From sequence record PV467749.1: 64,000 nucleotides of DNA; one strand, 5' to 3'. This document shows positions 5,935 through 24,199 of this stretch, piece by piece. Position 1 is the stretch's first letter; the number at the start of each line of letters is the position of its first letter. The position numbers were made by a program, and so were the translations under genes. The DNA is from a phage. A model generated the notes under the pieces. The model had not been told where the DNA came from and searched no databases. It saw only the letters and a list, made by a program, of their open reading frames with translations.

Positions 5935-5988
5935 GATAAAACTCCTTAATTTAGGAGGGAGAACCATTTCCCCCTCTCTATGTAAAAC

Positions 5989-6016
5989 ATTATACATGAA
6001 TCTAAGTACTATGCAA
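5989..6016 (-). promoter_or_regulatory. promoter + 5' stem-loop cassette (PeSL-like)
   Basis: TTGCAT-N16-TATAAT, then GAGGGGGAAATGGTTCTCCC hairpin (about 5954-5978); drives 5533..5934. Confidence 0.7.
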
Positions 6017-6023
6017 GTACTTT

Positions 6024-6356
6024 TTACATTTTGATACCTGGATTCAGGTAGCGGTGAGATCCATACTCTGGATCGGTTTCGGTCCAGTACTGTAAATCGA
6101 TAGTACCTTTCGCGTTAATCTTGTCTACCAGCTTATTCATCTTAGCGTATACTACATCAGCATCGATGCGTTTAAAGCCAGTGGCTTTAGTGAAGTAGTA
6201 GTGATTTGCTTCACTATCATTCAGGATGTACCGAGAACCGTTTGCCGTTTGTGCGATAATGATTGAGTATTCTACGTTACGGTCGAGGCCGTCGATGAAT
6301 ACAGAGGAAACATTAGTACGGATGAATGCTTTAACGATAGCGATTGAAGTAGTCAT
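6024..6356 (-). CDS. hypothetical protein
   Basis: 110-aa ORF, SD GGAGAT, own promoter. Confidence 0.75.
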   Translation of the reverse strand: MTTSIAIVKAFIRTNVSSVFIDGLDRNVEYSIIIAQTANGSRYILNDSEANHYYFTKATGFKRIDADVVYAKMNKLVDKINAKGTIDLQYWTETDPEYGSHRYLNPGIKM

Positions 6357-6409
6357 TTTGAATCTCCTAACTTTGTGGGCCGTCGCACCATTGCCGCCCT
6401 ACGAGATAC

Positions 6410-6438
6410 ATTATCGCAGTACTGATATACTTTGTCAA
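6410..6438 (-). promoter_or_regulatory. sigma70-type promoter
   Basis: TTGACA-N17-GATAAT, followed by a GC-rich hairpin; drives 6024..6356. Confidence 0.65.
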
Positions 6439-6550
6439 TACTTTTTTATTAATAGTTTTCACCCCACCAGCAGATAGTTACTCACCGTTATTAACTATAT
6501 ATTTTGGATACACCTATGCACCCTGTGGGCTAGTTTTTGTCTATGCGTAT

Positions 6551-6590
6551 ATAATAGCAAAGGGACTGACCGGAGTCAATCCCTTTTTTT
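6551..6590 (-). promoter_or_regulatory. terminator-promoter fusion cassette
   Basis: Hairpin GGGATTGAC-TCCG-GTCAGTCCC (6562-6583) contains the -35 TTGACT; N17; TATTAT (6551-6556). Sits directly after the stop of 6602..6802. Confidence 0.6.
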
Positions 6591-6601
6591 ATTCTTTTTT
6601 G

Positions 6602-6802
6602 TTAGATGATTCTCCAATCATCAACGATCATGGTAAGATACCGAACCAGTGATTCGAGTGATTCGTGTTCTCGATAGTCTGCCGCTCCACCAGCGGTACA
6701 AGTACAGCCGATTAAGCCGTTTTGTAGTTCCTGGATCTTTACGTCGATCTGGTTGGCTTTAGCTTCTTTCAGTACTGCAACCAGGGCGATAGCGATAGAC
6801 AT
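6602..6802 (-). CDS. hypothetical protein
   Basis: 66-aa ORF, SD GGAG, own PeSL-like cassette. Confidence 0.65.
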   Translation of the reverse strand: MSIAIALVAVLKEAKANQIDVKIQELQNGLIGCTCTAGGAADYREHESLESLVRYLTMIVDDWRII

Positions 6803-6857
6803 AATGTTTTACTCCAAACTATTGGCGGGAGAACTATTCCCCCGCTCTATGTAAAAC

Positions 6858-6885
6858 ATTATACATTACTGGTTAGTACTGTCAA
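6858..6885 (-). promoter_or_regulatory. promoter + 5' stem-loop cassette (PeSL-like)
   Basis: TTGACA-N16-TATAAT, then GAGCGGGGGAATAGTTCTCCCGCC hairpin. Confidence 0.7.
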
Positions 6886-6892
6886 ATAGTTT

Positions 6893-7150
6893 TTATGAAA
6901 TATCTTCGATGTAGTCGGCCCATTTCATTTTTTCAGTACTGTCAATGGCGACCGGATTATTTGGATCAAACCATTCACCATCACCGCAATACATACCCAC
7001 GGCTACGGTTTTATAGCCATCCTGGGCAGTACACCACGACATTGCACGATAGATATGGCCTTTAACTGGTTGCAGTACTGGTAACGTTTTATGGTCTTCT
7101 ACGTAGGCCATAGCTTGTGGATTTACCCGATATTGTGTGAACTGATCCAT
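6893..7150 (-). CDS. hypothetical protein
   Basis: 85-aa ORF with own promoter. Confidence 0.7.
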   Translation of the reverse strand: MDQFTQYRVNPQAMAYVEDHKTLPVLQPVKGHIYRAMSWCTAQDGYKTVAVGMYCGDGEWFDPNNPVAIDSTEKMKWADYIEDIS

Positions 7151-7178
7151 TATGTTTCCCCTTGTAGTTAGTAAAGTT

Positions 7179-7207
7179 ATTACATCAGTACTATCAAGCT
7201 ATGTCAA
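7179..7207 (-). promoter_or_regulatory. sigma70-type promoter
   Basis: TTGACA-N17-TGTAAT; no hairpin. Confidence 0.55.
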
Positions 7208-7226
7208 TAGTACTGAAATAAAACTT

Positions 7227-7451
7227 TTAGATTAGATTATTGAGGCCGTCAATGGTAGACTCACCTTCTTCTTTCTCCCATTGTCGGTAGTACTTCCATG
7301 CTTCATGATAGGTGGCGATTAGTTCATCTTTTTGATCCTGGTTACATGCCAGTACTGAATCACGGTGAGCGGTGTTATAGATAGAATCGAATGATTTCTT
7401 CTCTTCTGCCAGGTTAGCTACTTCCCGCATCAGTTCATCAAAGTTAGCCAT
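7227..7451 (-). CDS. hypothetical protein
   Basis: 74-aa acidic ORF, SD AAGGAG. Confidence 0.7.
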   Translation of the reverse strand: MANFDELMREVANLAEEKKSFDSIYNTAHRDSVLACNQDQKDELIATYHEAWKYYRQWEKEEGESTIDGLNNLI

Positions 7452-7498
7452 TTTATTACTCCTTTTAGTGGGGGAGGATATCTCCCCCTATGCAAAAC

Positions 7499-7526
7499 AT
7501 TATACTTTGTTTTAGTTATTATGCAA
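7499..7526 (-). promoter_or_regulatory. promoter + 5' stem-loop cassette (PeSL-like)
   Basis: TTGCAT-N16-TATAAT, then GGGGGAGATATCCTCCCCC hairpin (7470-7488). Overlaps the stop of the upstream gene. Confidence 0.7.
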
Positions 7527-7782
7527 GTACTTTTTTCATATAAACATTAAATTCTACACCGCCGTAACCTTCCACGATGATATGTTTTGCGTTATCACGT
7601 TTGCACATAGTGAAACCGTTGTTGATGTGTTCTGAATTTTCCAGGGCGACATCACCGATAGCGGCACATACAGCACTAATAACAGTATTCCGCAAAGTAC
7701 TGGTATCATTGGCGGTCATAGTAGTTTGCAGTACTACGTTGTCGTATACGTGTGCATTGATAGTGATTTCGATAGTGTTCAT
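7519..7782 (-). CDS. hypothetical protein
   Basis: Start moved to MNTIEITI (SD AGGAG). The track N-terminus MFYIERGKWF.. is translated cassette sequence. Confidence 0.7.
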   Translation of the reverse strand: MNTIEITINAHVYDNVVLQTTMTANDTSTLRNTVISAVCAAIGDVALENSEHINNGFTMCKRDNAKHIIVEGYGGVEFNVYMKKVLA

Positions 7783-7834
7783 GTTGTATCTCCTGGACTT
7801 GAGGGGAAACCATTTCCCCCTCTCGATATAAAAC

Positions 7835-7862
7835 ATTATACGTTAATCTAACTACAATGCAA
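7835..7862 (-). promoter_or_regulatory. promoter + 5' stem-loop cassette (PeSL-like)
   Basis: TTGCAT-N16-TATAAT + GGGGGAAATGGTTTCCCC hairpin. Confidence 0.7.
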
Positions 7863-7869
7863 GTACTTT

Positions 7870-8061
7870 TTAAATTTTATTTCCGATATAGTCCGGCATG
7901 TTCTTTTCAGTCATACGCTTTGCTAATGTCTGCATATGGCTTATAGCGTTCAAGGTGTCTTCCTCCAGGGATGAATCGAGATAATCAGGATCATTCTTCA
8001 CCTTGCAATGATTATGATAGCGTAGTACTGCCAGTACTTTTTTAACTTCTTCAACTGTCAT
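7870..8061 (-). CDS. hypothetical protein
   Basis: 63-aa ORF, ATGA-coupled to 8058..8330. Confidence 0.65.
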   Translation of the reverse strand: MTVEEVKKVLAVLRYHNHCKVKNDPDYLDSSLEEDTLNAISHMQTLAKRMTEKNMPDYIGNKI

Positions 8062-8330
8062 AATAAGTACTCCACTTCGTTAGCTTTCAGGTTAGTATCA
8101 ATCATCAATGGTTTTTTGTAGTTCACAAAACGATTAGTTTTTTCGATAGCAAATCCCATATAATCCAGCTTACTAACAGTACATTCATTCTTAAAAACTT
8201 CTTTCGCTGCATCGATGGCTGATTGCATGGATAACCGACCATCTAAATTAATGTTTCCAAATGATCCACCAGCAGAAGTAGGATTACCGTTCATATCTTT
8301 AATGATCATAGTAGCGGAGTAGCTGGACAT
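8058..8330 (-). CDS. hypothetical protein
   Basis: 90-aa ORF, SD AAGGAA. Confidence 0.7.
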   Translation of the reverse strand: MSSYSATMIIKDMNGNPTSAGGSFGNINLDGRLSMQSAIDAAKEVFKNECTVSKLDYMGFAIEKTNRFVNYKKPLMIDTNLKANEVEYLL

Positions 8331-8383
8331 AATTTTGTTTCCTTTTATTGGTGGGGAGAACTATTCTCCCCTTGATGTAAACT

Positions 8384-8411
8384 ATTATACAGTACTGATA
8401 TACTTTGTCAA
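8384..8411 (-). promoter_or_regulatory. promoter + 5' stem-loop cassette (PeSL-like)
   Basis: TTGACA-N16-TATAAT (TG-extended) + GGGGAGAATAGTTCTCCCC hairpin. Confidence 0.75.
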
Positions 8412-8417
8412 ATACTT

Positions 8418-8825
8418 TTATTCGCCCATATAGATTAGATTATCATCGCCTACATAGGGATCGCAAACGTTGATTTCTTCGCAGTACTTAGTGAATATAT
8501 CATCATAGTGACCGATATCACGATCCCAAAAACCAGTGCCGTGACCTTCGCGAGTAAGAAAGAGATCATGACCTGCATGACTATAAGTATAATCAGGATT
8601 ATGGTGTTTTTGTACTGTTTCCATATCTTCACCATGTACAGCAAGGAAACGTGAACATGCAATCACTGCCGCTTGATGGGCTTGCTCTGATAATTCATAA
8701 TCTTCCAGGTATTCGCCGTTCTCATTGTGTACTGTACTGAATTGCATAGCTTCAATGTAACCAGCGACCATTGCAGCATGATTTTTATCGTTGGCGATGG
8801 ACCGAGCTTGATTAGTAGTAGTCAT
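8418..8825 (-). CDS. conserved hypothetical protein (GHDLFLTREGHGTGFWDR motif)
   Basis: 135-aa ORF. The H-D-x-F-L-T-R-x-G-H-G-x-G-F-W-D motif resembles a widespread phage/plasmid domain that I cannot name. Confidence 0.8.
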   Translation of the reverse strand: MTTTNQARSIANDKNHAAMVAGYIEAMQFSTVHNENGEYLEDYELSEQAHQAAVIACSRFLAVHGEDMETVQKHHNPDYTYSHAGHDLFLTREGHGTGFWDRDIGHYDDIFTKYCEEINVCDPYVGDDNLIYMGE

Positions 8826-8877
8826 GATTTTATTCCTTTTAGTATCGGGGAGAACTATTCTCCCCTTGATGTAAACT

Positions 8878-8905
8878 ATTATACAGTACTGGTATACTTT
8901 GTCAA
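8878..8905 (-). promoter_or_regulatory. promoter + 5' stem-loop cassette (PeSL-like)
   Basis: TTGACA-N16-TATAAT + GGGGAGAATAGTTCTCCCC; near-identical to the cassette at 8384. Confidence 0.75.
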
Positions 8906-8908
8906 TAC

Positions 8909-9130
8909 TTAATTACGTTTAAAATGATATGTACCTTTATCATCCTGTACGCCCCATACTGATTTACCATTTAAACCAGTGAAGCCGGATTGTAATTCAA
9001 TATGGAAACCATTATTATCAACTACAAAAACTTTTTTATTTTCATCCCGATAGCATTGATATTCTTCACCTGCTTTAAATGCTGCATCATTCAGAAGATT
9101 TGAAGCGTGAACGCAGGTCATAGTAGTCAT
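8909..9130 (-). CDS. hypothetical protein
   Basis: Start moved to MTTMTCVH (SD AAGGAA); 45 track residues upstream are cassette read-through. Confidence 0.65.
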   Translation of the reverse strand: MTTMTCVHASNLLNDAAFKAGEEYQCYRDENKKVFVVDNNGFHIELQSGFTGLNGKSVWGVQDDKGTYHFKRN

Positions 9131-9185
9131 CGTCTTGATTCCTTTTAGTACTAGGGAGAACCATTTCCCCCTCTCGATATAAAAC

Positions 9186-9213
9186 ATTATACGCTCATTG
9201 AGATAGTTTGCAA
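9186..9213 (-). promoter_or_regulatory. promoter + 5' stem-loop cassette (PeSL-like)
   Basis: TTGCAA-N16-TATAAT + GGGGGAAATGGTTCTCCC hairpin. Confidence 0.7.
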
Positions 9214-9307
9214 GTACTTTTTTAAAAATAGTTTTCAGTACTGAATACTTATATAATAGATACACTTCCGCACCCTATGGGTCAGTGAGTTATCTCTCAA
9301 TGGATAT

Positions 9308-9347
9308 ATAATAGCAAAGGGACTGACCGGAGTCAATCCCTTTTTTA
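9308..9347 (-). promoter_or_regulatory. terminator-promoter fusion cassette
   Basis: Hairpin 9319-9340 (GGGATTGAC-TCCG-GTCAGTCCC) carries TTGACT; N17; TATTAT. Follows the stop of 9355..9939. Confidence 0.6.
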
Positions 9348-9354
9348 ATCTTTT

Positions 9355-9939
9355 TTATCGTGTTACCTTACTTGCTGCCACATCACGCTTTTTATAGTAC
9401 TGATTCCAGATATTGCAGGTTAAACCGTAATCAAGTACTTTAATAAGGCCATTACGATCCTGGCCGATATTCTGTTTTCTGATATCTCTTATCGTTAGTG
9501 TTGATAATGTATCATCGACGTGTTGTAGTGCATCAGCAAAGCGGTGCTGGCGTTCGATTGCATTACGTTTAATATTGTACTTTAATTCATTGCACGCGTT
9601 TACGTGCTTCACACTACCTTTGCTTGCAGTACTCAACCGATCCATAACGATAAACATATTATCAGGATCGCATAAATGCATATGCACCTTTGCAAAGTAC
9701 TGTTTCAACTGAGGGCGGTCATAGTCTAAAAAATTCCATACCTTACATTCAGTTTCATTTTGTTCTACACCCGCATCACAATTCGCGACCTTAATCACTA
9801 ACCGATCATTTAAAGCGAAAACTATACGGGAAGAACCAGCACCGATGATCTCCAGGCCAGCTAACCGACAAGCTGAAAGGATCTCTTTGTTGGTTTCCAT
9901 TTCTGACAGTGTACGGATGAATTTAGTATAATTACGCAT
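9355..9939 (-). CDS. minimal protein-kinase-like protein
   Basis: Start at MRNYTKF (SD AAGGAG). IGAGSSRIVF (Gly loop), VIKV (Lys), DIRKQN (catalytic loop), LDYG (DFG-like); ends about 20 aa after DYG. Confidence 0.6.
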   Translation of the reverse strand: MRNYTKFIRTLSEMETNKEILSACRLAGLEIIGAGSSRIVFALNDRLVIKVANCDAGVEQNETECKVWNFLDYDRPQLKQYFAKVHMHLCDPDNMFIVMDRLSTASKGSVKHVNACNELKYNIKRNAIERQHRFADALQHVDDTLSTLTIRDIRKQNIGQDRNGLIKVLDYGLTCNIWNQYYKKRDVAASKVTR

Positions 9940-9967
9940 TGCATGTTCTCCTTGAGTTAATGAAACT

Positions 9968-9996
9968 ATATTACAGTACTTTACTATCAATGGCAA
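9968..9996 (-). promoter_or_regulatory. sigma70-type promoter
   Basis: TTGCCA-N17-TAATAT; overlaps the stop of 9971..10213. Confidence 0.5.
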
Positions 9997-10213
9997 CTAC
10001 TTTTTTAACATTAACGGCGTGGATCACTTCCTTCGTGTTTTTAGTACTGAATACTTTCGCCGCTCCTTGTTCGACCGTGATACGATAGCGACCATTAACA
10101 TCAACCATATTAATAAAGTCCGGCGTGCTGAATGGTGTTGTTTTACATTTGAGTACTGTTAACAGTTCCACCAGCGATGTAGTTTCTTTGATACGTTTTT
10201 CTAAAGTAATCAT
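9971..10213 (-). CDS. hypothetical protein
   Basis: Start moved to MITLEKRIK; the 19 upstream track residues (MTVLKCFST..) are promoter read-through. Confidence 0.65.
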   Translation of the reverse strand: MITLEKRIKETTSLVELLTVLKCKTTPFSTPDFINMVDVNGRYRITVEQGAAKVFSTKNTKEVIHAVNVKKVVAIDSKVL

Positions 10214-10241
10214 TTTGTTTCCCCCGTGTTGGTATGTACAT

Positions 10242-10270
10242 ATAGTACTAAAACATTTGAGTACTGTCAA
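10242..10270 (-). promoter_or_regulatory. sigma70-type promoter (duplicated unit)
   Basis: TTGACA-N17-TACTAT; the same 57-bp unit recurs at 10490-10546. Confidence 0.65.
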
Positions 10271-10489
10271 TTAGATAATATTATATTTCTTAAAATAAAA
10301 TGCGTCCTGTGTTGGTTGATACTCAATTCCATTGCCGTTATTGACTTCAACTAATAAACCTTTGTCAATAAGTTTTTTAATAGTACGATACCCTTGTTGA
10401 AAATTGGTAAAATGTGAATCATTACGAAAGGTATAACCGTGCTTAACTGCTTCATCAATAGTTTTCTTTTCGATTTTAGATAATTTCAT
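10271..10489 (-). CDS. hypothetical protein (possible winged-helix)
   Basis: Start moved to MKLSKIEKK; 72 aa; the KKLIDKGLLVEV segment is helix-turn-helix-like (weak). Confidence 0.6.
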   Translation of the reverse strand: MKLSKIEKKTIDEAVKHGYTFRNDSHFTNFQQGYRTIKKLIDKGLLVEVNNGNGIEYQPTQDAFYFKKYNII

Positions 10490-10517
10490 TTTGTTTCTCC
10501 CGTGTTGGTATGTGTAC

Positions 10518-10546
10518 ATAGTACTAAAACATTTGAGTACTGTCAA
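10518..10546 (-). promoter_or_regulatory. sigma70-type promoter (duplicated unit)
   Basis: TTGACA-N17-TACTAT; copy of 10242..10270. Confidence 0.65.
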
Positions 10547-10797
10547 CGTGATATTAGTTTTATTTTCTTATTGTATTGTTGATGCTCATAAAGGTTTATC
10601 TTTCCTGTGTTCTCGATTACTATCCTGTTGTTAGTGTCCACGTCGATTACACGCAGTTTCCCGTTGCTTAACTTCCTAGGTAATAGGTTACCATTAATAA
10701 ACTCATTAGCAAGCTGTACGGCCTTTGTGATGATTCTCTGAGGTGCTTTATAGTGTACCCGTAAGATGTTATCTTTATATAGTTGAACCTTAATCAT
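10543..10797 (-). CDS. hypothetical protein
   Basis: 84-aa ORF downstream of a terminator hairpin. Confidence 0.65.
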   Translation of the reverse strand: MIKVQLYKDNILRVHYKAPQRIITKAVQLANEFINGNLLPRKLSNGKLRVIDVDTNNRIVIENTGKINLYEHQQYNKKIKLISR

Positions 10798-10810
10798 TTT
10801 GTTTGTCCGA

Positions 10811-10837
10811 TAAAAAAGGCGGGAACTGATCCCGCCG
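10811..10837 (-). terminator. rho-independent terminator
   Basis: GGCGGGatcagttCCCGCC followed by TTTTTT on the minus strand, after the stop of 10859..11254. Confidence 0.7.
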
Positions 10838-10858
10838 TGTTGTTAGTACTGCAAGTTA

Positions 10859-11254
10859 TTAGATAACCTGGCGGCGTTTACTGTATACTGTTACACGATT
10901 ACCCTTACGATCATGTCGGATCTCTTTCTGGTTGCGAATCAGTTCACTTGGACGCTTAAGGTTTGCCAGGTGATCCGCGTGAGTCCATGCGGTGTGGTTT
11001 ACCTGTACTTTGATATCAGAATCAGCGATAAACTCATCTTGTGCGTCAAGTATTGCCGCCAGCATATCCGCTCGTTTTAGTTCTGCTGCTGTCAGTACTG
11101 GCTCAGGTGAATTCACAATATCAGAGATTTCTTTGAACTGTACGGCCCAGCGTTGACCTTTCGGTGCATCTTTGCCCATGTCTTTAAATGCTGCTCCTTC
11201 CTCGCGTGCAACAATACGGGCAGCTTCACGGGTAGCGTAGAATTTAGTAATCAT
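10859..11254 (-). CDS. hypothetical protein, paralog of 22841..23107
   Basis: Shared FATREAAR..FKDMG..KRWA..DRKGNRVTVY; start set at MITKFYATRE (track 11263 adds MYT). Confidence 0.75.
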   Translation of the reverse strand: MITKFYATREAARIVAREEGAAFKDMGKDAPKGQRWAVQFKEISDIVNSPEPVLTAAELKRADMLAAILDAQDEFIADSDIKVQVNHTAWTHADHLANLKRPSELIRNQKEIRHDRKGNRVTVYSKRRQVI

Positions 11255-11298
11255 GGTATACATCCTATTAGTTAAGTTAGTACTACAAGTTAGAGTCT

Positions 11299-11327
11299 AT
11301 TATAAAGTACTATCTGGACAGTGTCAA
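11299..11327 (-). promoter_or_regulatory. sigma70-type promoter
   Basis: TTGACA-N17-TATAAT. Confidence 0.65.
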
Positions 11328-11349
11328 ATAGTACTTTAAATGGATTCTA

Positions 11350-11673
11350 TTACATGTCTTTCTTACGTTTTACATCGTGGTAGCGAACTGTAATTTCTTT
11401 GTTGATCTCTTCCTCGATGCGGTGAATAACTTTTTCTTTCGGGTTGAAACCTATAACGGTTTCTTTAATGATCTCCAAGCCCGTGTATTCGCCTTGTGTA
11501 CCGTAACCGTATGTAAAGGTTTCGTGTCCCAGGTCTTCCCAGCGATCACCAATCAATGCGGACACGTAGCAGGAGTGGTAAGTATTGCCGTGGCTATCAG
11601 TCCACCGATTAACTTTAATGTCAAAGGAGGTTACAATTTTCAGTTCTACTTTCTGGGTAAGGATCATAGCCAT
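11350..11673 (-). CDS. hypothetical protein, paralog of 17861..18184
   Basis: Shared RWTDSxGNTYHSCxVS..FTYGY..V(K/Q)RKKD. Confidence 0.8.
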   Translation of the reverse strand: MAMILTQKVELKIVTSFDIKVNRWTDSHGNTYHSCYVSALIGDRWEDLGHETFTYGYGTQGEYTGLEIIKETVIGFNPKEKVIHRIEEEINKEITVRYHDVKRKKDM

Positions 11674-11757: not shown

Positions 11758-11760
11758 TAC

Positions 11761-12026: not shown

Positions 12027-12029
12027 TAC

Positions 12030-18417: not shown

Positions 18418-18466
18418 TTTAGTTTCCTTGTAGTGGGGAGAACCATTTCTCCCCTTGATGTAATGT

Positions 18467-18494: not shown

Positions 18495-18502
18495 GTACTT
18501 TT

Positions 18503-18730
18503 TTAATTTAATTCATCAAGGCAAAGGATACGCTCAACGCCCAAATCAGTTAAACTAATCGACGGCACTTGATAGGTTTCAATGTATGCTACACTTGCCC
18601 ACTGACCGAACTCATTAACGGCCCAGGTATTCATTGCATTTTGCAATTCCGCACCTTCCTTGTTGGTAATGACTGCAACTACTTGTTCGTTGCCAGTAGT
18701 ACCAGATACGCGAGTAATGATAATAGCCAT
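18503..18730 (-). CDS. hypothetical protein
   Basis: Start moved to MAIIITRV (75 aa); upstream track residues are cassette read-through. Confidence 0.65.
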   Translation of the reverse strand: MAIIITRVSGTTGNEQVVAVITNKEGAELQNAMNTWAVNEFGQWASVAYIETYQVPSISLTDLGVERILCLDELN

Positions 18731-18785
18731 TGTTTTGATTCCTTTGATTTTGAAGGAGAACCGTTTCCCCCTCTCGATGTAAAAC

Positions 18786-18813
18786 ATTATACGCTAATCT
18801 CTTAATCGTGCAA
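18786..18813 (-). promoter_or_regulatory. promoter + 5' stem-loop cassette (PeSL-like)
   Basis: TTGCAC-N16-TATAAT + GGGGGAAACGGTTCTCC hairpin. Confidence 0.65.
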
Positions 18814-18965
18814 GTACTTTTTATTACTTTTTGCAAAATACTTTAAACGCTCTCAATCGCGTTCTTACAGCCTTAACGCCACCAGCTAGGGCAATGCATC
18901 AGATAATCAGTTTAATGCGTTAGAATCGTTTCTAGGCGGTGCTGGTGGCCTGGTAAACGATAAAC

Positions 18966-18994
18966 ACAAAAAAGCCCACCGTTTAAGGTGGGCT
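18966..18994 (-). terminator. rho-independent terminator
   Basis: GCCCACCttaaacGGTGGGC + TTTTTT on the minus strand, after 19016..19498. Confidence 0.75.
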
Positions 18995-19015
18995 AGTGAT
19001 TCAGTACTTTAATTG

Positions 19016-19498
19016 TTATGCTTCAACTTTGCGATGAGCTTCGATCCATTCCTCGCGAGTCATACCACTGGAGTTAATCGCGTCCAGTACTACCGCAATA
19101 CAGTTACCACGCACCGGAATCAGATATTCTTCCCCGTTGTCCAGTACTACCGCTACGCGTTCCTGAATCCATTTTTTGGCTTTTACTTCTGGCTTGTCTT
19201 CCCCATACTTAACCGCCAGGGCTTTTTGTGCCATCTCTGTAACTACTTCCAGATCCAATCCAACTACTGCCGCCTGAATACTTTCGATTGTTGCTTGTAG
19301 TTCTGCTTCACGGGCCGCCTTTGCCGCTTCAATTTCTGCCGCTTTATTTGCTTGTAGTTCTTTCGCAGTACTGTACGCGATGTTAAAATTATTGCGTACC
19401 GCTTTCATGGTATCGTTATCCAGTTCAGCCAGGATCTCAGCCGCTACGTTAGTTTCATTTGCTACCAGTGCTTTGATGAATGATTTTACATTAGCCAT
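19016..19498 (-). CDS. hypothetical protein (Ala/Glu-rich helical N-terminal half)
   Basis: Start set at MANVKSF (SD GAGGAT); 160 aa. Confidence 0.8.
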   Translation of the reverse strand: MANVKSFIKALVANETNVAAEILAELDNDTMKAVRNNFNIAYSTAKELQANKAAEIEAAKAAREAELQATIESIQAAVVGLDLEVVTEMAQKALAVKYGEDKPEVKAKKWIQERVAVVLDNGEEYLIPVRGNCIAVVLDAINSSGMTREEWIEAHRKVEA

Positions 19499-19621
19499 TT
19501 TATAAATCCTCAATTAAAGTTTAGTTTACGTTTATTAGTGTATCAAAGTTTTCTCGACGTGTCCAGTTTTTCGTTCGACTTACTGGCGGTCTACTTAGTG
19601 CTCCCCGTCTTGATGTAATAC

Positions 19622-19649
19622 ATTCTACGCTTTTCTGCGGTAATGTCAA
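19622..19649 (-). promoter_or_regulatory. sigma70-type promoter with diverged copy of the structured leader
   Basis: TTGACA-N16-TAGAAT. The leader at about 19540-19620 resembles the spacer of the 12321/22107 repeats. Confidence 0.55.
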
Positions 19650-19700
19650 CTACTTTCTTAAAACTATTTTCAAAGTATCTCAGTACTACGATACTACAAA

Positions 19701-19725
19701 AACAAAAAAGCCCACCAGGTGGGCT
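19701..19725 (-). terminator. rho-independent terminator
   Basis: GCCCACctgGTGGGC + TTTTTTGTTTTT on the minus strand, after 19732..19962. Confidence 0.65.
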
Positions 19726-19731
19726 ATGTAC

Positions 19732-19962
19732 TTAATCAGTGAGTAAAATATTAAACACTTTACCATTTAACGTTATTGGTGCACTGCTACCAGGCTCAAG
19801 ATCCGTTAATATACCTGCAATCGCTTTATCATTGGCGACCTTTCCAGTGTCCAACAGTACTACAGTACTGATAAGATTAACGCTCGTTTCAATATCATAA
19901 TGCACGGCGTTAAGTAGTTGTGTAGTACTGCTTTCGTTAAGTAAAACAATTCGCTTAGTCAT
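19732..19962 (-). CDS. hypothetical protein
   Basis: 76-aa ORF. Confidence 0.7.
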   Translation of the reverse strand: MTKRIVLLNESSTTQLLNAVHYDIETSVNLISTVVLLDTGKVANDKAIAGILTDLEPGSSAPITLNGKVFNILLTD

Positions 19963-19983
19963 GATGTTACCCCGTAGTATCTA

Positions 19984-20283
19984 TCAACGGCAATTAATAA
20001 CGCCGGTATGCGTTACTTTCTCAGTATCCATTACAGTGACCGAACCGCGTTTAGTACTGGCATCATAATAAATTGTTGTGCTACCGTTTTCGTCTTCTTC
20101 ATGGAACGGGCCGTTTTTAAATGCTTCCGGCTGGATCTCTAAATCCTTTAATACAATCTCGCCAGTACTTTCATCGGTCATTGCAACAGTGCACTGAATG
20201 AATTTTTCACTACTTACATCTAATGACGCATTAACAGCGAAAGAGGAAACAGATAAAGCCAGGGCGATGATTGTAATTTTCAT
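19984..20283 (-). CDS. small secreted protein (signal peptide, two-Cys family)
   Basis: Start moved to MKITIIALALSVSSFAVNA|S; Cys near the mature N-terminus (FIQC) and 1 residue from the C-terminus (VINCR). Confidence 0.75.
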   Translation of the reverse strand: MKITIIALALSVSSFAVNASLDVSSEKFIQCTVAMTDESTGEIVLKDLEIQPEAFKNGPFHEEDENGSTTIYYDASTKRGSVTVMDTEKVTHTGVINCR

Positions 20284-20328
20284 TTGATTATCCTTAGTTA
20301 CCAGGGGAACCGCTCCCCTATGCAAAAC

Positions 20329-20356
20329 ATTATACGCGTTTAAAAACTAATTGCAA
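20329..20356 (-). promoter_or_regulatory. promoter + 5' stem-loop cassette (PeSL-like)
   Basis: TTGCAA-N16-TATAAT + GGGGAGCGGTTCCCC hairpin. Confidence 0.7.
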
Positions 20357-20389
20357 GTATTTTAATAAAAAGTATTTGAAAAATAATTG

Positions 20390-20418
20390 TTGACAACTGC
20401 ATCCAGTACTGGCATAAT
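20390..20418 (+). promoter_or_regulatory. plus-strand sigma70-type promoter with no ORF downstream
   Basis: TTGACA-N17-CATAAT; CCCACCGGGTGC box at 20447-20458. Confidence 0.6.
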
Positions 20419-20424
20419 TACTAC

Positions 20425-20519
20425 ATCAAGACGAAACAGTCACTAACCCACCGGGTGCCGAGATCCGTCTATTAAATGATTCAGTACTGAAAAAGTAACG
20501 GGGAGTTATTATCTCCCCG
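20425..20519 (+). ncRNA. candidate ~95-nt small RNA
   Basis: Runs from the promoter at 20390-20418 to the GGGGAGttattatCTCCCC hairpin (20500-20518). No ORF or SD; contains the conserved box. Confidence 0.3.
20488..20519 (-). terminator. terminator hairpin (possibly bidirectional)
   Basis: GGGGAGataataaCTCCCC, followed on the minus strand by gttaCTTTTT; lies after the stop of 20525..20746. Confidence 0.6.
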
Positions 20520-20524
20520 CGTTG

Positions 20525-20746
20525 TTATTTTGTAAGGTATAAACAGAAGTCGCCTTTATTTGCTACGCCGCCAGTGTAACGCGATGAATAGTTAGAAACG
20601 TCCTGGACTTCTGCTATTACCAGGGTATCATCATTCAATTCGTCGCAGAAGCAAACGGCTGGATCTTGTACGCCGATTTTGTCGGCATGTTCCCGCATAG
20701 ATTTAACCAGTGCTTCCAGTTGGGAAAGAGTAGTGATATTAGCCAT
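20525..20746 (-). CDS. hypothetical protein
   Basis: Start moved to MANITTLSQ (73 aa). Confidence 0.7.
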   Translation of the reverse strand: MANITTLSQLEALVKSMREHADKIGVQDPAVCFCDELNDDTLVIAEVQDVSNYSSRYTGGVANKGDFCLYLTK

Positions 20747-20796
20747 TTTATTTTCCTCATTACCAGGGAGAACCATTTCTCCCTTTGATGTAAACC

Positions 20797-20824
20797 ATTA
20801 TACAGTACTGAAAACTAATTGCAA
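20797..20824 (-). promoter_or_regulatory. promoter + 5' stem-loop cassette (PeSL-like)
   Basis: TTGCAA-N16-TATAAT + GGGAGAAATGGTTCTCCC hairpin. Confidence 0.7.
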
Positions 20825-20832
20825 GTACTTTT

Positions 20833-21093
20833 TCAATATTGTTTGTCGTCGTCTTCCTCGATGAATTGACCGACGAAATGATCTACTTTCGCTTTGAGGC
20901 TTTTATAATCTTCTTCTACTTCCTTTAAACGTTCCTGGTAGTATTCCAATGCTTCAAGATACGCCGCCTCAGCAGTTTTTGCACGCATGGCTAAATTCAT
21001 GCCACGCGTTTCATCAAATAGCCAATAACCATCGGTGCACTGGCTAATAGATAATGTCTTGCTTAGTGCTGTATAGCTAATTACTTTACTCAT
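20833..21093 (-). CDS. hypothetical protein (coiled-coil C-terminus)
   Basis: 86-aa ORF. Confidence 0.7.
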   Translation of the reverse strand: MSKVISYTALSKTLSISQCTDGYWLFDETRGMNLAMRAKTAEAAYLEALEYYQERLKEVEEDYKSLKAKVDHFVGQFIEEDDDKQY

Positions 21094-21131
21094 TAGATAA
21101 CCCTCAGTAAAGGCGGGAACTATTACCCGCC

Positions 21132-21161
21132 ATTATCTCAGTACTGAATATTACATTCCAA
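21132..21161 (-). promoter_or_regulatory. probable promoter + stem-loop
   Basis: TTGGAA-N18-GATAAT + GGCGGGtaatagttCCCGCC; overlaps the 3' end of 21151..21390. Confidence 0.45.
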
Positions 21162-21390
21162 CCATTGCAGCACGGATCGCAGTAGTGCTATATTTGAATC
21201 CGTCCGGCGTTGTAGTAGTACCGTTGGCTTTTAATCTGCGGTACATACATTCCGCAGCAATATCTTTAGTTCTACTTTGTGCGATGCAACTTTGTGCAAG
21301 CCGATACAATGACTCACCGTTATTAATCCAAAGGCTTACATTCCAATGAGTTTTGTTTTTGTGTCCGTTGTAAGTTTTAGTACTAGCCAT
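21151..21390 (-). CDS. hypothetical protein, paralog of 23196..23435
   Basis: Start moved to MASTKTYNGHK. Shared GHKNKTHWNVSLWINN.ESLYRLAQ and TPDGFKYSTTAIRAAMVGM. Confidence 0.8.
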   Translation of the reverse strand: MASTKTYNGHKNKTHWNVSLWINNGESLYRLAQSCIAQSRTKDIAAECMYRRLKANGTTTTPDGFKYSTTAIRAAMVGM

Positions 21391-21440
21391 TTTTAAATCC
21401 TCGTTTGAGCGGGGAACCACTCCCCGCCTTGATGTAAAGT

Positions 21441-21468
21441 ATTATACGCTTTTAAACTTAGTTTACAA
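21441..21468 (-). promoter_or_regulatory. promoter + 5' stem-loop cassette (PeSL-like)
   Basis: TTGTAA-N16-TATAAT + GGCGGGGAGTGGTTCCCCGC hairpin. Confidence 0.65.
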
Positions 21469-21480
21469 GTACTTTTTAAA

Positions 21481-22092
21481 TTAATATTCGATTGATTCCA
21501 CTACGCCATCAATAACATTGAATTGATATTCGTTACCCTCAATCAGTGCAGTAATGTTTTCAGTAGTGAATTGATCCTCATATGCATTCTCTAAATCACG
21601 GTACAACTTACGAGATAATTCACGGATCGCATCAGTCAGTAAGTTTTCCAGGTCATCAGCAAGTGCCGCTTGTTTTACAGTTAAATCAGTGTAGCGAGTA
21701 TCAACGCAACCGCTTACCGTGTTTTCGTGTGCGTAGCGAGAGTGTGAACGTTCTACACTCATTGCCAAATCATCTTCATTCAACAAGTGACGGATTGAAC
21801 GATATTTCGTTAACGCCTTAACCTTGCGTAAAAACTTCTCAGCGTCAACGTGGTTAGTACTGATTGATGCACCGTCACCTTGCGACCAAAAACCACTGTA
21901 TTGCAATTCAGCTTCATCTATGCCGTATTCTGGTAGTACTGTTTCTTTATAGTACTCGATAACGCCCTCAGCAAAGAAATTATCCTCACATGAACGCTCA
22001 CGATCCCGAACCAGTTCGATAGCCGCCGTTTTTTGTTCTGCGTTCAGTTCAGAAAAAGCCATAACAAAAGTAGTAGTAGTGATAGTTTTCAT
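21481..22092 (-). CDS. conserved hypothetical protein (YSGFWSQGDGAS motif)
   Basis: 203-aa acidic ORF. The motif is reminiscent of plasmid/phage-borne families, but I cannot assign one. Confidence 0.8.
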   Translation of the reverse strand: MKTITTTTFVMAFSELNAEQKTAAIELVRDRERSCEDNFFAEGVIEYYKETVLPEYGIDEAELQYSGFWSQGDGASISTNHVDAEKFLRKVKALTKYRSIRHLLNEDDLAMSVERSHSRYAHENTVSGCVDTRYTDLTVKQAALADDLENLLTDAIRELSRKLYRDLENAYEDQFTTENITALIEGNEYQFNVIDGVVESIEY

Positions 22093-22106
22093 TTTGTAAC
22101 CCTCAT

Positions 22107-22298
22107 TCAGTAGTTGATGTAAGTATTATACGCTTTTAAAAACATTTGTCAAACTATTTTATCAGGGGAGTTTTTCGTGTGCCTTACTCCTGGGCTACTT
22201 AACGGGAAGTTACTTATTTCGTTCCCCGTCCTGATGTAAAACATTATACGCTTATTGAGATAGTTTGCAAGTACTTTTTAAAAATAGTTTTCAGTACT
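22107..22298 (-). repeat. ~190-bp dual-promoter unit with structured ~75-nt spacer (copy B)
   Basis: Near-identical to 12321..12510. P1 22243-22270 (TTGCAA-N16-TATAAT), P2 22125-22152 (TTGACA-N16-TATAAT). Confidence 0.75.
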
Positions 22299-22316
22299 GA
22301 ATAGTAAAAAAAAGTA

Positions 22317-22345
22317 TTGACAGCATTATCAAGTACTGGCATAAT
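22317..22345 (+). promoter_or_regulatory. plus-strand promoter, convergent with 22461..22489
   Basis: TTGACA-N17-CATAAT; box CCCACCGGGTGC at 22367-22378; no ORF. Confidence 0.6.
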
Positions 22346-22460
22346 ATACCCCATGACAACAGCTAACCCACCGGGTGCACAATTGTAACTATACTAAACT
22401 AATTTTTCTATAGATACACTCCCGCACCCTATGGGCTACGGCTTATCTGCCAATGAATAC

Positions 22461-22489
22461 ATTATGCCAGTACTGACAAAATAAGTCAA
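22461..22489 (-). promoter_or_regulatory. minus-strand promoter, convergent with 22317..22345
   Basis: TTGACT-N17-CATAAT; box (minus sense CCCATAGGGTGC) at 22424-22435. Confidence 0.6.
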
Positions 22490-22522
22490 TACCGGCAATT
22501 GTAAATTTTTCAAAAAATATGA

Positions 22523-22753
22523 TTATACTGCAATCGCGTCCAGGCTGTAATAATAATAAGTGCCGTATTGGTGTACTTTATTACCTTTTATTTCAGTACT
22601 GAATGAATCCGAACGATTTGCATATGATGTTAATTTAAAGTACTTTGATTTGCTGATACGTTGCCATACACCACAGATCCGCTGTAAGTAAGTAGTTTTA
22701 TTCGTGGTCGTATCTTTTACGGTTTTAACTTCAGTCATATACATATTAGTCAT
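22523..22753 (-). CDS. hypothetical protein
   Basis: 76-aa ORF, SD GGAG. Confidence 0.7.
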   Translation of the reverse strand: MTNMYMTEVKTVKDTTTNKTTYLQRICGVWQRISKSKYFKLTSYANRSDSFSTEIKGNKVHQYGTYYYYSLDAIAV

Positions 22754-22805
22754 TTTTATTACTCCAGGTTATAGGCGGGAAGAGTTCCCGCTCTCGATGT
22801 AAAAC

Positions 22806-22833
22806 ATTATACGCCTTTAAACATAGTTTGCAA
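22806..22833 (-). promoter_or_regulatory. promoter + 5' stem-loop cassette (PeSL-like)
   Basis: TTGCAA-N16-TATAAT + GAGCGGGAACTCTTCCCGCC hairpin. Confidence 0.7.
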
Positions 22834-22840
22834 GTACTTT

Positions 22841-23107
22841 TTATTCAAGTACTGCAATCTTTTTAGTACGGTACACGGTCACGCGGTTGCCCTTTCGGTC
22901 GAGCTTTATTTCTACCACTCGACGCGATACACTATCGGGACTTTTTAAGGCCGCTAACCAGTACTGTAATGATCTGGCGGTACTACGCTTTACAATGGCC
23001 CAACGTTTACCACGTTCCGATTGTACGCCCATATCTTTAAACGTTGCCCCGTCCTGGCGTGCGGCGATCCGAGCTTGTTCACGCGTCGCAAAATACTTAA
23101 TATTCAT
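22841..23107 (-). CDS. hypothetical protein, paralog of 10859..11254
   Basis: Start moved to MNIKYFATREQAR; shared FKDMG, KRWA, DRKGNRVTVY. Confidence 0.75.
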   Translation of the reverse strand: MNIKYFATREQARIAARQDGATFKDMGVQSERGKRWAIVKRSTARSLQYWLAALKSPDSVSRRVVEIKLDRKGNRVTVYRTKKIAVLE

Positions 23108-23195
23108 GCTGTTGCCCTTATCGTTGGTGTATGAATAAAACACTATTATAAAGTACTATCCCCGTGCAATAGTACTTTAAATAAATTCTATTCTA

Positions 23196-23435
23196 TTACA
23201 TTCCAACCATTGCCGCACGGATCGCAGTAGTGCTATATTTGAATCCGTCCGGTGTTTTATCTTGTCCAGTCTGTTCTAAAAATAACATCATATGACGGGC
23301 CGCATCATTGCGATTAGTGCTATCGTTAATAAAGTCCTGGGCCAACCGGTATAATGATTCATCGTTATTAATCCAAAGGCTTACATTCCAATGAGTTTTG
23401 TTTTTGTGACCTAAGAACATTTTTGATTTAGCCAT
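23196..23435 (-). CDS. hypothetical protein, paralog of 21151..21390
   Basis: Start moved to MAKSKMFLGHK (SD AGAGGA). Confidence 0.8.
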   Translation of the reverse strand: MAKSKMFLGHKNKTHWNVSLWINNDESLYRLAQDFINDSTNRNDAARHMMLFLEQTGQDKTPDGFKYSTTAIRAAMVGM

Positions 23436-23486
23436 TTTTTTAATCCTCTTATATAGTGGGGAACTATTCCCCACCTGATGTAAAAC

Positions 23487-23514
23487 ATTATACGCTTTTA
23501 AACTTAGTTTGCAA
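23487..23514 (-). promoter_or_regulatory. promoter + 5' stem-loop cassette (PeSL-like)
   Basis: TTGCAA-N16-TATAAT + GGTGGGGAATAGTTCCCCAC hairpin. Confidence 0.7.
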
Positions 23515-23528
23515 GTACTTTATTAAAC

Positions 23529-23891
23529 TTATTTGTAAATTTTGCCACTTTCTACCCATACCAGGAAACGAGGCATATTATCCCATGCATCTTGCTTTAA
23601 GTTTAAGCCGTGCAATTCCTCAGTTGTTGCCATGCCTGGGACTGGTTTACTATACACCGAGAATTTTTCGCCCATGTACTGATAAACCATCGTCAAATCA
23701 CTGGCGATCATCTTATGGATCATCGCATCAAGCATCACGGTCGCGGCGTATTGTTCACGCTTAAGCGGCAGCATTTTAATCAGTTCGCGGTATGCGTCAA
23801 TGTGAGTTTTAACCGTTGCCGCCGGAAGATCTTTCATCTCGTCGCGGAAGTTAACCAGGTTAGCAATAATTTTGGTGATTTGAGTCGCCAT
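23529..23891 (-). CDS. hypothetical protein
   Basis: Start moved to MATQITKII (120 aa); 47 upstream track residues are cassette read-through. Confidence 0.7.
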   Translation of the reverse strand: MATQITKIIANLVNFRDEMKDLPAATVKTHIDAYRELIKMLPLKREQYAATVMLDAMIHKMIASDLTMVYQYMGEKFSVYSKPVPGMATTEELHGLNLKQDAWDNMPRFLVWVESGKIYK

Positions 23892-23948
23892 CGTTTTAAT
23901 CTCTCTTAAAAGTGAGTTAGGAGCGTTTCCCCCGTCTCGATGTAAAAC

Positions 23949-23976
23949 ATTATACGCCTTTAAACATAGTTTACAA
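23949..23976 (-). promoter_or_regulatory. promoter + 5' stem-loop cassette (PeSL-like)
   Basis: TTGTAA-N16-TATAAT + GACGGGGGAAACGCTCC hairpin; leftmost-pointing promoter at the edge of the ORF-free region. Confidence 0.65.
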
Positions 23977-24199
23977 GTACTTTCTACAAATACTTTTAAA
24001 ATAGTTTTCTTTCTATATAGGGAAACTATCATTCAGTACTGAATCAACCAAATCACTACTACACCCCGTAAAACGGCCTCAATCGCATTCTAACGCATTA
24101 TTACACCTAAGCTATACATTTGCACCATTCTAATCATTCCAGTGCGTTACGGGCCGTTTAAACGCGTTAAATTATTTTCAATTATTTTGTTTTTAGGTA

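Follow-up and report, generated by a model that had tools for sequence, protein, structure and literature searches.

In a stretch of 64,000 nucleotides (nt) of phage DNA from sequence record PV467749.1, which was analysed at its full length and is called the window here, we found that a standardised cassette of about 87 nt, composed of a predicted promoter, a 5' stem-loop and a Shine-Dalgarno (SD) sequence, is repeated in front of many small genes between about 5.1 and 25.8 kb. This region is the direct terminal repeat (DTR), of about 21 kb, of an Asteriusvirus (PBECO4/121Q-like; Rak2-like) jumbo coliphage. Taken together, it appears probable that the DTR holds an array of sigma70 promoter/5'-untranslated region (UTR) hairpin cassettes, in which the hairpin protects the mRNA and insulates the SD, and that these cassettes take part in a gene shuffling like that of promoter-early stem-loop (PeSL) elements.

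The cassettes had been proposed in an initial annotation of the window, and proved to be real. The 16-mer TATAATGTTTTACATC gave 33 matches with up to three mismatches, against 3.3 ± 1.7 expected and reached in none of 100 shuffles, and these matches were nearly all on the minus strand, at 5979-25186. When the 30 minus-strand copies were folded about 25 showed the described anatomy, and a hairpin of -8 kcal/mol or lower followed 25 of the 29 window promoters that were defined by the initial-transcribed motif. An independent rule-based scan, in which a promoter had to be combined with a perfectly paired stem of 6 bp or more and with a start codon preceded by an SD, detected 25 cassettes in the window and 126 in the loci of eight relatives, all on the gene strand. 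Searching the whole window with a covariance model built from 25 cassette copies gave 27 matches, all on the minus strand, with 26 inside the DTR (5939-23954) and one at 56300-56351; the plus strand of the window gave no match. The statement that nearly every early gene has such a unit was too broad, as a cassette is found in front of about 25-27 of the approximately 46 called genes, which is about half, and the other DTR genes have different promoter types without a hairpin or are translationally coupled. No Rfam family matched the window at the gathering score, and two unrelated sub-threshold matches with E ≤ 1 were seen in 5000-25600. An exact-pattern scan of IMG/VR for the 16-mer returned 72 loci, mostly single chance matches in unrelated contigs.

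Each cassette consists, in order, of a TAA stop codon within an A-tract, AGTACT overlapping a TTGCAA or TTGACA -35 box, a 16-nt spacer, TATAAT, the transcribed leader GTTTTACATC, a hairpin of 7-9 bp with a G-rich and a C-rich arm (GGGG..CCCC), ACTAA, the SD and ATG. Between -45 and +22 the consensus reads AAAAAGTACTTGcAAA-N-gcGTATAATGTTTTACATCgAGgGG. TATAAT is near-invariant, the -35 box is TTGACA or TTGCAA/TTGTAA/TTGCAT, and the leader is conserved as strongly as the -10 box. The promoters are predicted; many of the minus-strand sites match 10-12 of 12 consensus positions, and the region has 95 promoter-like sites as compared to 60.7 ± 6.9 in shuffles. Directly 5' of AGTAC-TTGCA is a conserved AAAAA tract that contains the TAA stop of the preceding gene, in agreement with the earlier observation that cassettes often start at or overlap the previous stop codon; further upstream the AT content equals the genome average (0.65 vs 0.64). 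With SD-based gene calls the intergenic gaps are uniform, mostly 85-90 nt. The N-terminal extensions that had been regarded as spurious are indeed artefacts of the open reading frame (ORF) track, as illustrated by ORF 5533..5997, which is over-extended and has its SD-supported start at 5934. The outlying copy c56351, outside the DTR, keeps the geometry with a divergent hairpin. On the other hand, the supposed duplication of whole promoter and gene units (11730/11999, 16725/16954, 8384/8878 and 10242/10518) was not confirmed. Only the cassette of about 60-90 nt is shared within these pairs, with an identity of 16-20/20 across the cassette core and of 1-8/20, the background level, in the ORFs, and BLASTP of the paired proteins gave no match at E ≤ 1e-3. 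Real paralogue pairs are present elsewhere (g23435/g21390, g23107/g11254 and g18184/g11673).

To describe the stem we used 104 distinct promoters that were picked by the initial-transcribed motif alone and are therefore unbiased for the hairpin. The stem was present in 88% of the promoters defined in this way. The 34 nt after the leader had a mean minimum free energy (MFE) of -12.0 kcal/mol, compared to -4.7 for shuffled sequences and -10.9 for the reverse complement, and the sense strand was more stable than the antisense strand in 69 vs 31 cases (Wilcoxon p = 1.6e-5). MAFFT alignments, made for the cassettes (A1) and for hairpins centred on the loop (A2), were end-gapped with mis-registered arms, and RNAalifold on A1 gave five pairs only; they were replaced by a count anchored at the loop and by an alignment to the covariance model. 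Counting outward from the loop in 85 distinct hairpins yielded a helix of 7-8 bp, in which position 4 was GC in 44, GU in 21 and AU in 20 hairpins, position 6 was GC in 76 and CG in 9, position 7 was GC in 64, AU in 13, CG in 3 and UA in 1, and position 8 was GC in 36, AU in 20 and CG in 7. Permuting the 3' arms among these hairpins reduced the pairing from 90.3% to 78.7 ± 0.8%, and at positions 7-9, where pairing was not forced by the detection rule, 71% were paired vs 53.9 ± 1.9% after permutation. In the model-made alignment of 107 distinct copies, which leans towards structure and contains related copies with arms conserved in sequence, 93.4% of the main helix cells were paired and both sides had changed in five of the seven pairs. 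This alignment held 54 double-change cells vs 15 ± 9 in shuffles and had a covariation score of 0.280 vs 0.195 ± 0.009, both values being reached in none of 500 shuffles, and every slid register scored lower than the stem register. Within these caveats, the stem is supported as being under structural selection, which had been proposed earlier from its covariation. The sense-strand stem contained G·U pairs in 38 cells at stem positions 1-7. The stem detection permitted G·U but not A·C, so that the lack of A·C carries no independent weight and the sense/antisense comparison is the unbiased part of the RNA argument. The G·U pairs and the sense-strand bias argue for an RNA structure of the coding strand over a cruciform in the DNA.

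The position of the stem is also constant. It started 10-14 nt after the -10 box in 104 of 113 distinct cassettes, equal to 5-7 nt past the predicted start, and the loop began at 20-21 nt after the -10 box in 84 of the 113 and at 16-17 nt in a short-leader subtype. With the start predicted 6-8 nt after the -10 box the leader is about 47 nt long, and in the MFE fold 80% of the SD window is unpaired. The loops vary in sequence and length (ATGG, TAG, CGG, AAAC, ACATC, CTC). No T-run follows the cassette stems, the tails being ACTAATTAAGG, CCTAACAAAG, GGTAATAAGG and similar, and a terminator scan flagged none of the cassette hairpins in the region. The same scan did recover terminators at 14643, 18994, 19725 and 10836, and elements overlapping a -35 box at 6586, 9343, 12608 and 16294. 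As the stem is located inside the transcript, 5-7 nt from its predicted start and without a T-run, the hairpin is probably a 5'-UTR element, an mRNA stabiliser or insulator, rather than a terminator.

Positions 5000-24500 of the window matched 226 phage records in a sequence search, with the Asteriusvirus jumbo coliphages E9.1, fEgEco12, vB_Ec-M-J, G17, PBECO4 and others as top matches (92-98% identity). Despite this identity the query coverage was at most 65% in any one relative, showing that the region is riddled with indels. The annotation 'Direct Terminal Repeats' of vB_Ec-M-J (1-21525) has its boundary at window position ~5104, the first base of the E9.1 record corresponds to ~25573, and for the relative Sharanji a DTR of 20,668 bp was determined by PhageTerm (PMC11895373); it follows that the cassette array fills the DTR, a setting that had not been recognised in the initial annotation. 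The genes of the DTR, estimated at about 55 in all, are small, mostly ORFan and on the minus strand, that is, directed inward from the physical genome end. Of the ten largest proteins served by a cassette, one passed the Pfam cut-off as a GNAT acetyltransferase and one as a DksA/TraR zinc finger; sub-threshold hits, to a protein-kinase domain and a papain-fold toxin, were obtained for two others, and the remaining six gave no Pfam hits. This gene content fits an early host-takeover and accessory set.

The window was compared to five relatives by chaining megablast blocks, and the block ends were taken as indel breakpoints. Among these 84 block ends, 46% were in the 13.6% of the region covered by cassettes (3.4 times chance), 35% were in other intergenic sequence (22% of the region) and 19% in coding sequence (64%), and many junctions had an overlap of 40-100 nt, that is, a repeat at both indel ends. 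The initial annotation had suggested a comparison with relatives to see whether indels are bounded by the cassettes; they frequently are, and two junctions were resolved at the base level. For the first one, fEgEco12 has a cassette, an extra gene of about 75 codons and a second cassette, where the window has a single hybrid, c20334, whose crossover is located in the GAGCGGTTCCCC..TGGTAACTAAGGA stretch. For the second one, it is the window that has an extra gene of 155 codons (15618-16085), between c16143 and c15592, and fEgEco12 that has a single hybrid, with the promoter of one cassette and the SD and start of the other. Both crossovers are within the common stretch of -10 box, initial-transcribed sequence (ITS), hairpin and SD. 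Such hybrid-cassette junctions are the signature of homologous recombination between direct repeats, as in the PeSL model.

The palindrome AGTACT is by far the most over-represented hexamer of the window, with 274 copies against 21.5 expected from base composition (13-fold) and CAGTACTG as extended consensus. It is densest in 4000-28000 and absent from 1-4000. Of its 124 sites within the DTR 69 are outside called coding sequences, and the others are spread over the three reading frames (18/14/23). In 25 of 26 cassettes AGTACT was present at fixed positions, namely at -27 overlapping the -35 box, at -7 abutting the -10 box, or at -16. The enrichment was 12-20-fold in every Asteriusvirus locus examined and 0.1-fold in the phi92-like Justusliebigvirus JLBYU50. 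A literature search on AGTACT over-representation in phages yielded nothing relevant. A global regulator might use the motif as its operator; alternatively, it could be a site of modification or nicking.

With a single cassette as query, 7-28 places were found per Asteriusvirus genome (Escherichia and Salmonella phages), and single places in phages of ~141-146 kb and in Klebsiella/Pectobacterium jumbo phages. JLBYU50 has a small-gene island of about 5 kb with a spacing of ~87-100 nt and the same cassette architecture as the window, and its stems are more varied (GCGGGAA/TTCCCGC, GGGCGGCA/TGCCGCCC, GGCGGTGG/CCCACCGCC). Five of its gene modules have homologues among the DTR genes of the window, and one of them shares 88% nt identity over 316 nt, promoter spacer included. 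The only two AGTACT sites in 46.6 kb of JLBYU50 are both located in this module, which, given the strong enrichment of the motif in Asteriusvirus, suggests a recent transfer from an Asteriusvirus-like donor.

In the mechanism that we propose, the host sigma70 RNA polymerase would fire all cassette promoters directly after DNA entry, and each gene would yield its own short mRNA with a leader of about 47 nt, in which the hairpin would form 5-7 nt from the 5' end. The hairpin would act as a self-contained 5'-UTR module that protects against 5'-end-dependent decay of the mRNA and, irrespective of the ORF behind it, leaves the SD accessible. As direct repeats of about 90 nt present in some 25 copies, the cassettes lend themselves to homologous recombination, by which single genes would be deleted, inserted or swapped in a PeSL-like modular shuffling. 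Several points weigh against this account. The 'early' timing and the position of the transcription start site are derived from consensus rules. Full protection by a 5' hairpin in E. coli is usually quoted for at most 2-4 unpaired 5' nt, and with the 5-7 nt seen here the role of stabiliser is plausible but not tight. The hairpin sequence is conserved beyond structural need (GGGG[A/G][A/G]AA ... TT[C/T][C/T]CCCC), which could be due to recent common ancestry, gene conversion or sequence-specific recognition, and the shuffle tests overstate independence, as the copies are paralogues and orthologues. With respect to recombination, selection against broken genes would enrich intergenic junctions anyway, so that the overlaps are the informative part, and the similarity of adjacent cassettes was not significantly higher than that of distant ones (0.633 vs 0.610, permutation p = 0.087).

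Other roles of the hairpin were considered. The authors of the PeSL papers proposed for Gn-loop-Cn stem-loops the role of a terminator or attenuator, which would stop upstream read-through so that the promoter serves its own gene only; one RB49/phi1 stem-loop cut lacZ expression as much as rrnB T1 (PMC2839356), and the stems in the window have the same GGGG..CCCC composition. We find this quite unlikely for the window. With its position downstream of the predicted start of the cassette, the stem would also attenuate the transcript of that cassette, the hairpins of RB49 mostly overlap or precede the promoter and hence have another anatomy, and a scan that finds the real terminators of the region picks none of the cassette stems. 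The missing T-run speaks against intrinsic termination as well, and the terminator reading was set aside as improbable. It is also unlikely that the hairpin, with or without the GTTTTACATC leader, is a binding site through which a phage or host protein co-regulates all cassette mRNAs, for example a translational repressor or a nuclease for early shut-off, or a nut/boxB-like loading site. The arms are conserved past the need for pairing (GAA/TTC beside the loop and the G-run), the site has a fixed position in about 25 co-expressed mRNAs and the leader is conserved to the same degree as the -10 box. However, loops that are free in sequence and length argue against a boxB-type loop recognition, there are few downstream terminators that would need antitermination, and no candidate protein was identified. 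An RNase III site was rejected as improbable, as stems of 7-9 bp are too short for this enzyme.

Action of the stem-loop in the DNA, as a cruciform or recombination signal for a structure- or site-specific enzyme, with the cassettes as ends of mobile elements in a mini-circle model, would be in line with the crossovers in the hairpin/SD stretch in both resolved cases and with modules common to unrelated phages, and encapsidated mini-circles formed by recombination between neighbouring PeSLs are reported for RB49/phi1 (PMC2839356). Nevertheless we regard it as very unlikely, since the frequent G·U pairs of the sense strand would be G·T mismatches in DNA, the sense strand folds better than the antisense strand, and the crossover stretches are the longest identical runs, as ordinary homologous recombination would use. 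Finally, the hairpin might have no function of its own and simply travel with a promoter module, the spread of which is due to duplication and gene conversion. Some whole cassettes are nearly identical, non-functional spacer positions included, but this possibility is highly improbable in the light of the compensatory and G·U-mediated changes that keep the pairing over 85-107 distinct copies. Moreover, c56351 and the phi92-like phage keep the stem in place with different sequences (GGGATGA/TCATCCC and GGGCGGCA/TGCCGCCC), and c13565, with a decayed -10 box, still has its stem.

Beyond the 5'-UTR module with PeSL-like shuffling that we prefer, one could see the cassette as an 'expression and recombination currency' of unrelated virulent coliphages, the DTR as an integrase-free gene-cassette array of host-takeover and anti-defence ORFans, and AGTACT as the operator of a global regulator. 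This extended view is possible but doubtful. If it were true, any ORF behind the promoter/leader of ~87 nt would be movable between genomes by homologous recombination in co-infection, and be expressed at once.

Table 1. Cassettes and other elements with their positions in the window (ITS, initial-transcribed sequence).
Feature	Position	Strand	Description	Score or source
Direct terminal repeat	5104..25800		approximate extent	vB_Ec-M-J annotation, E9.1 record start, Sharanji DTR (PMC11895373)
c5994	5932..6026	-	AGTAC-TTGCAT, N16, TATAAT, GTTTTACATA, hairpin GAGGGGGAA/TTCTCCCTC, SD, ATG 5934	61.9 bits
c6863	6800..6895	-	TTGACA; hairpin GCGGGGGAA/TTCTCCCGC; ATG 6802	
c7504	7449..7536	-	short-leader subtype GCATA-GGGGGAG/CTCCCCC; ATG 7451	
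c7840	7780..7872	-	ATG 7782	
c8389	8328..8421	-	TTGACA class, AGTACT abutting -10; ATG 8330	
c8883	8823..8915	-	near-identical to c8389, unrelated ORF behind; ATG 8825	
c9191	9128..9223	-	ATG 9130	
c11735	11671..11767	-	ATG 11673	
c12004	11941..12036	-	ATG 11943	
c12996	12937..13028	-	stem extends to TCGGA/TCCGA; ATG 12939	
c13294	13237..13326	-	TGGACA -35; ATG 13239	
c13565	13511..13598	-	degenerate, weak -10 TATAGT, hairpin AGGGGAA/TTCCCCT kept; ATG 13513	27.8 bits
c15157	15095..15189	-	ATG 15097	
c15592	15533..15624	-	right-hand partner of pair flanking window-specific gene 15618-16085	
c16143	16083..16175	-	identical 37-nt -10/ITS/hairpin stretch with c15592; one hybrid of both in relatives	
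c16730	16672..16762	-	ATG 16674	
c16959	16900..16991	-	ATG 16902	
c18472	18415..18504	-	ATG 18417	
c18791	18728..18823	-	ATG 18730	
c20334	20281..20366	-	hybrid; relatives have two cassettes and an extra gene between	
c20802	20744..20834	-	top model score; ATG 20746	69.2 bits
c21446	21388..21478	-	hairpin GGCGGGGAG/TTCCCCGCT; ATG 21390	
c22811	22751..22843	-	hairpin GCGGGAA/TTCCCGC; cassette and gene 88% nt identical to phi92-like JLBYU50	
c23492	23433..23524	-	hairpin GGTGGGGAA/TTCCCCACT; ATG 23435	
c23954	23889..23986	-	weaker hairpin; ATG 23891	
c56351	56297..56383	-	outlying, outside DTR; hairpin GGGATGA/TCATCCC	38 bits
Variant	22184..22280	-	standard promoter and ITS, ~75-nt structured leader instead of simple hairpin, then second promoter (-10 at 22130)	30.4 bits
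Modules shared with JLBYU50	21149-23870		JLBYU50 L080 2194-2838 and L081 33355-33990	
Small non-coding units	22395-22462, 16192-16260, 14497-14564, 12511-12578, 9241-9309, 6489-6556	-		
Small non-coding units	20420-20487, 22340-22407, 24445-24512, 24229-24295	+		
Composite elements, DTR	6559-6586, 9316-9343, 12581-12608, 16267-16294	-	hairpin over -35, then T-run; AAAGGGATTGACTCCGGTCAGTCCCTTTGCTATTAT	
Composite elements outside DTR (-10 boxes)	54176, 58798, 61062, 61840	-		
Consensus promoters without 5' hairpin	14838-14865, 11299-11327, 18226-18254, 10242-10270, 10518-10546	-		

Besides the cassettes the region has ten copies of a small non-coding CCCAYNGGGTGC unit, with a sigma70-like promoter, about 28 nt, an invariant CCCA-NN-GGGTGC and a G·U-rich hairpin of 7 bp (GGGUGCR/YGYRYCY); two of the units are convergent and overlapping (22340-22462). 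A covariance model of this unit gave 55 copies in the ten sources searched, found in the window and seven Asteriusvirus loci and none in JLBYU50 or RB49. Pairing was 92.9%, the changes were mostly one-sided GU/GC and the covariation was weak. The units had no Rfam match and are candidate small RNAs. Adjoining one of them, in a non-coding gap at 14433-14503, are five GATC sites in about 70 bp, all GATCAA/TTGATC, which form the densest GATC cluster of the window; over the window as a whole GATC is under-represented (144 vs 212 expected). The cluster could be a Dam/SeqA cluster or a protein-binding array.

Composite terminator/promoter elements were also observed, in which a 12-bp hairpin, AAAGGGATTGACTCCGGTCAGTCCCTTT, contains the -35 box (TTGACT) and is directly followed by GCTATTAT. 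In the DTR they drive the small non-coding units, and outside the DTR they precede protein genes. They share the anatomy that is typical of the PeSLs of RB49, including its stem placement, and had not been noted in the initial annotation. In phage G17 this region carries annotated ARNold terminators, which are probably the same elements. Structured leaders of about 75 nt, ATCAGGACGGGGAAC...CCCGTTAAGTAG.CCAGGAGTAAG...CTCCCCTGAT, follow a standard promoter and ITS in sister copies at 12385-12460 and 22170-22248 on the minus strand, and possibly at 19560-19627; the sister copy of the variant at 22184..22280 spans 12385-12492. Between each of the two leaders and its gene is a second promoter, directly adjoining the leader and lacking a hairpin (-10 at 12344 and 22130). 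The leaders may be another small RNA or a regulatory leader. Several hairpin-less promoters, e.g. at 14843, 11304 and 18254, have AGTACT on both sides of the -35 box and before the -10 box (AGTACT-A-TTGACA-TAGTTTGAT-AGTACT-G-TATAAT), and at the 14843 element indel junctions with overlaps of 40-60 nt occur as well. Just outside the DTR, at 4193-5005 on the minus strand, is a run of paralogous genes of about 65-70 codons with 4-nt overlaps and no promoters in between, and relatives carry at least 20 such paralogues in tandem. This layout contrasts sharply with that of one promoter per gene inside the DTR.

With the cassettes the PeSL idea would be extended beyond T4-type phages, to jumbo phages of the Rak2-like type and to phi92-like phages, and standardised promoter/leader modules may be a general route by which large virulent phages acquire and test small accessory genes. 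Two anatomies that have been lumped together are separated here, one with the stem overlapping the promoter, where it could terminate, and one with the stem in the 5' UTR, probably acting at the RNA level, and the latter gives a testable prediction for mRNA stability. In practice the cassettes mark true start codons, by which over-extended ORF calls are corrected. They also represent about 25 predicted strong, compact and insulated expression modules for E. coli and flag sites for harmless genome engineering.

Among known systems, the 5' UTR of ompA carries the 5'-terminal stem-loop that stabilises this mRNA in E. coli. The cassettes similarly have a stable hairpin near the mRNA 5' end and upstream of an accessible SD, but the classical protection needs almost no unpaired 5' nt, whereas 5-7 are predicted here. 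In phage T5 a large direct terminal repeat enters first, with small host-takeover genes transcribed by the host RNA polymerase from strong sigma70 promoters; unlike the window it has a handful of pre-early promoters, without a standard cassette with 5' hairpin repeated ~25-fold. By analogy only, the array resembles integron cassettes and their attC sites, in that single ORFs of promoterless size are bounded by a repeated, structured and imperfectly conserved element and exchanged as units. However, the window has no integrase or attC-type bottom-strand structure and the repeated element is the promoter and leader itself, and the exchange is most simply explained by ordinary homologous recombination.

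For the related Rak2-like jumbo clade, the only published statement that we found concerns vB_PcaM_CBB, for which 18 RpoD-like promoters with an UP-like element were predicted (Buttimer et al. 2017, PMC5259590). As in the window these are sigma70-type promoters concentrated among short hypothetical ORFs and on a terminal repeat of ~22 kb, and the genes were interpreted as early, but a conserved leader, a 5' stem-loop, the regularity of a cassette and a role in recombination were not described there. The literature on promoters with 5' hairpins in Asteriusvirus, PBECO4, 121Q, Sharanji, rV5 and phi92 gave generic promoter predictions only, and papers on PA5oct, rV5 and Sharanji and a review of jumbo phages had nothing on a hairpin or cassette.

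PeSLs have been described in the T4-type phages RB49/phi1, T4/PST and KVP40/nt-1 as a sigma70-like early promoter of the form TTGACA-N17-TATAAT or near it, with an AT-rich upstream tract and a stem-loop (Gn-loop-Cn in RB49/phi1), found in hyperplastic regions before ORFans and with indel junctions in the elements (Arbiol et al. 2010, PMC2839356; Comeau et al. 2014, PMC4122927). The concept has thus been known since 2010, and the match noted in the initial annotation stands for the promoter, A-tract, stem, hyperplastic location and indel junctions and fails for the stem placement and the T4-type host. In the window, too, a near-consensus sigma70 promoter, a Gn-loop-Cn stem-loop and an SD occur together in a short gap before small ORFans, are clustered in the most plastic part of the genome and have gene-sized indels or replacements with junctions in the elements. 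In contrast, five subclasses of stem-loop placement are distinguished for PeSLs (before, inside or overlapping the promoter, or immediately ahead of the transcription start), and in RB49 the stem-loop mostly overlaps the -35/-10 boxes or is upstream of them, whereas in the window it is fixed inside the transcript at about +6 to +30. At strong promoters in the first 50 kb of RB49 seven hairpins overlap the promoter, three are upstream, two just after the -10 box and three downstream; in the window 19 are downstream and eight overlap, mostly of the type over the -35 box. The window cassettes further differ by the lack of a T-run, which makes a terminator role unlikely, by their setting in a direct terminal repeat, by the lineage-specific AGTACT and by their host, a Rak2-like jumbo phage with all close matches in Asteriusvirus, whereas RB49 belongs to the Straboviridae. 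Only a distant link connects the Rak2-like group to T4-like phages (PMC5259590, PMC7318152). New compared to the PeSL work, and testable, are the evidence at the RNA level, the jumbo-phage terminal-repeat setting, the exchange between families and the tie to AGTACT. The cassettes are therefore probably PeSL-like in their evolution, but different in anatomy and host lineage, with a role of the stem at the RNA level.

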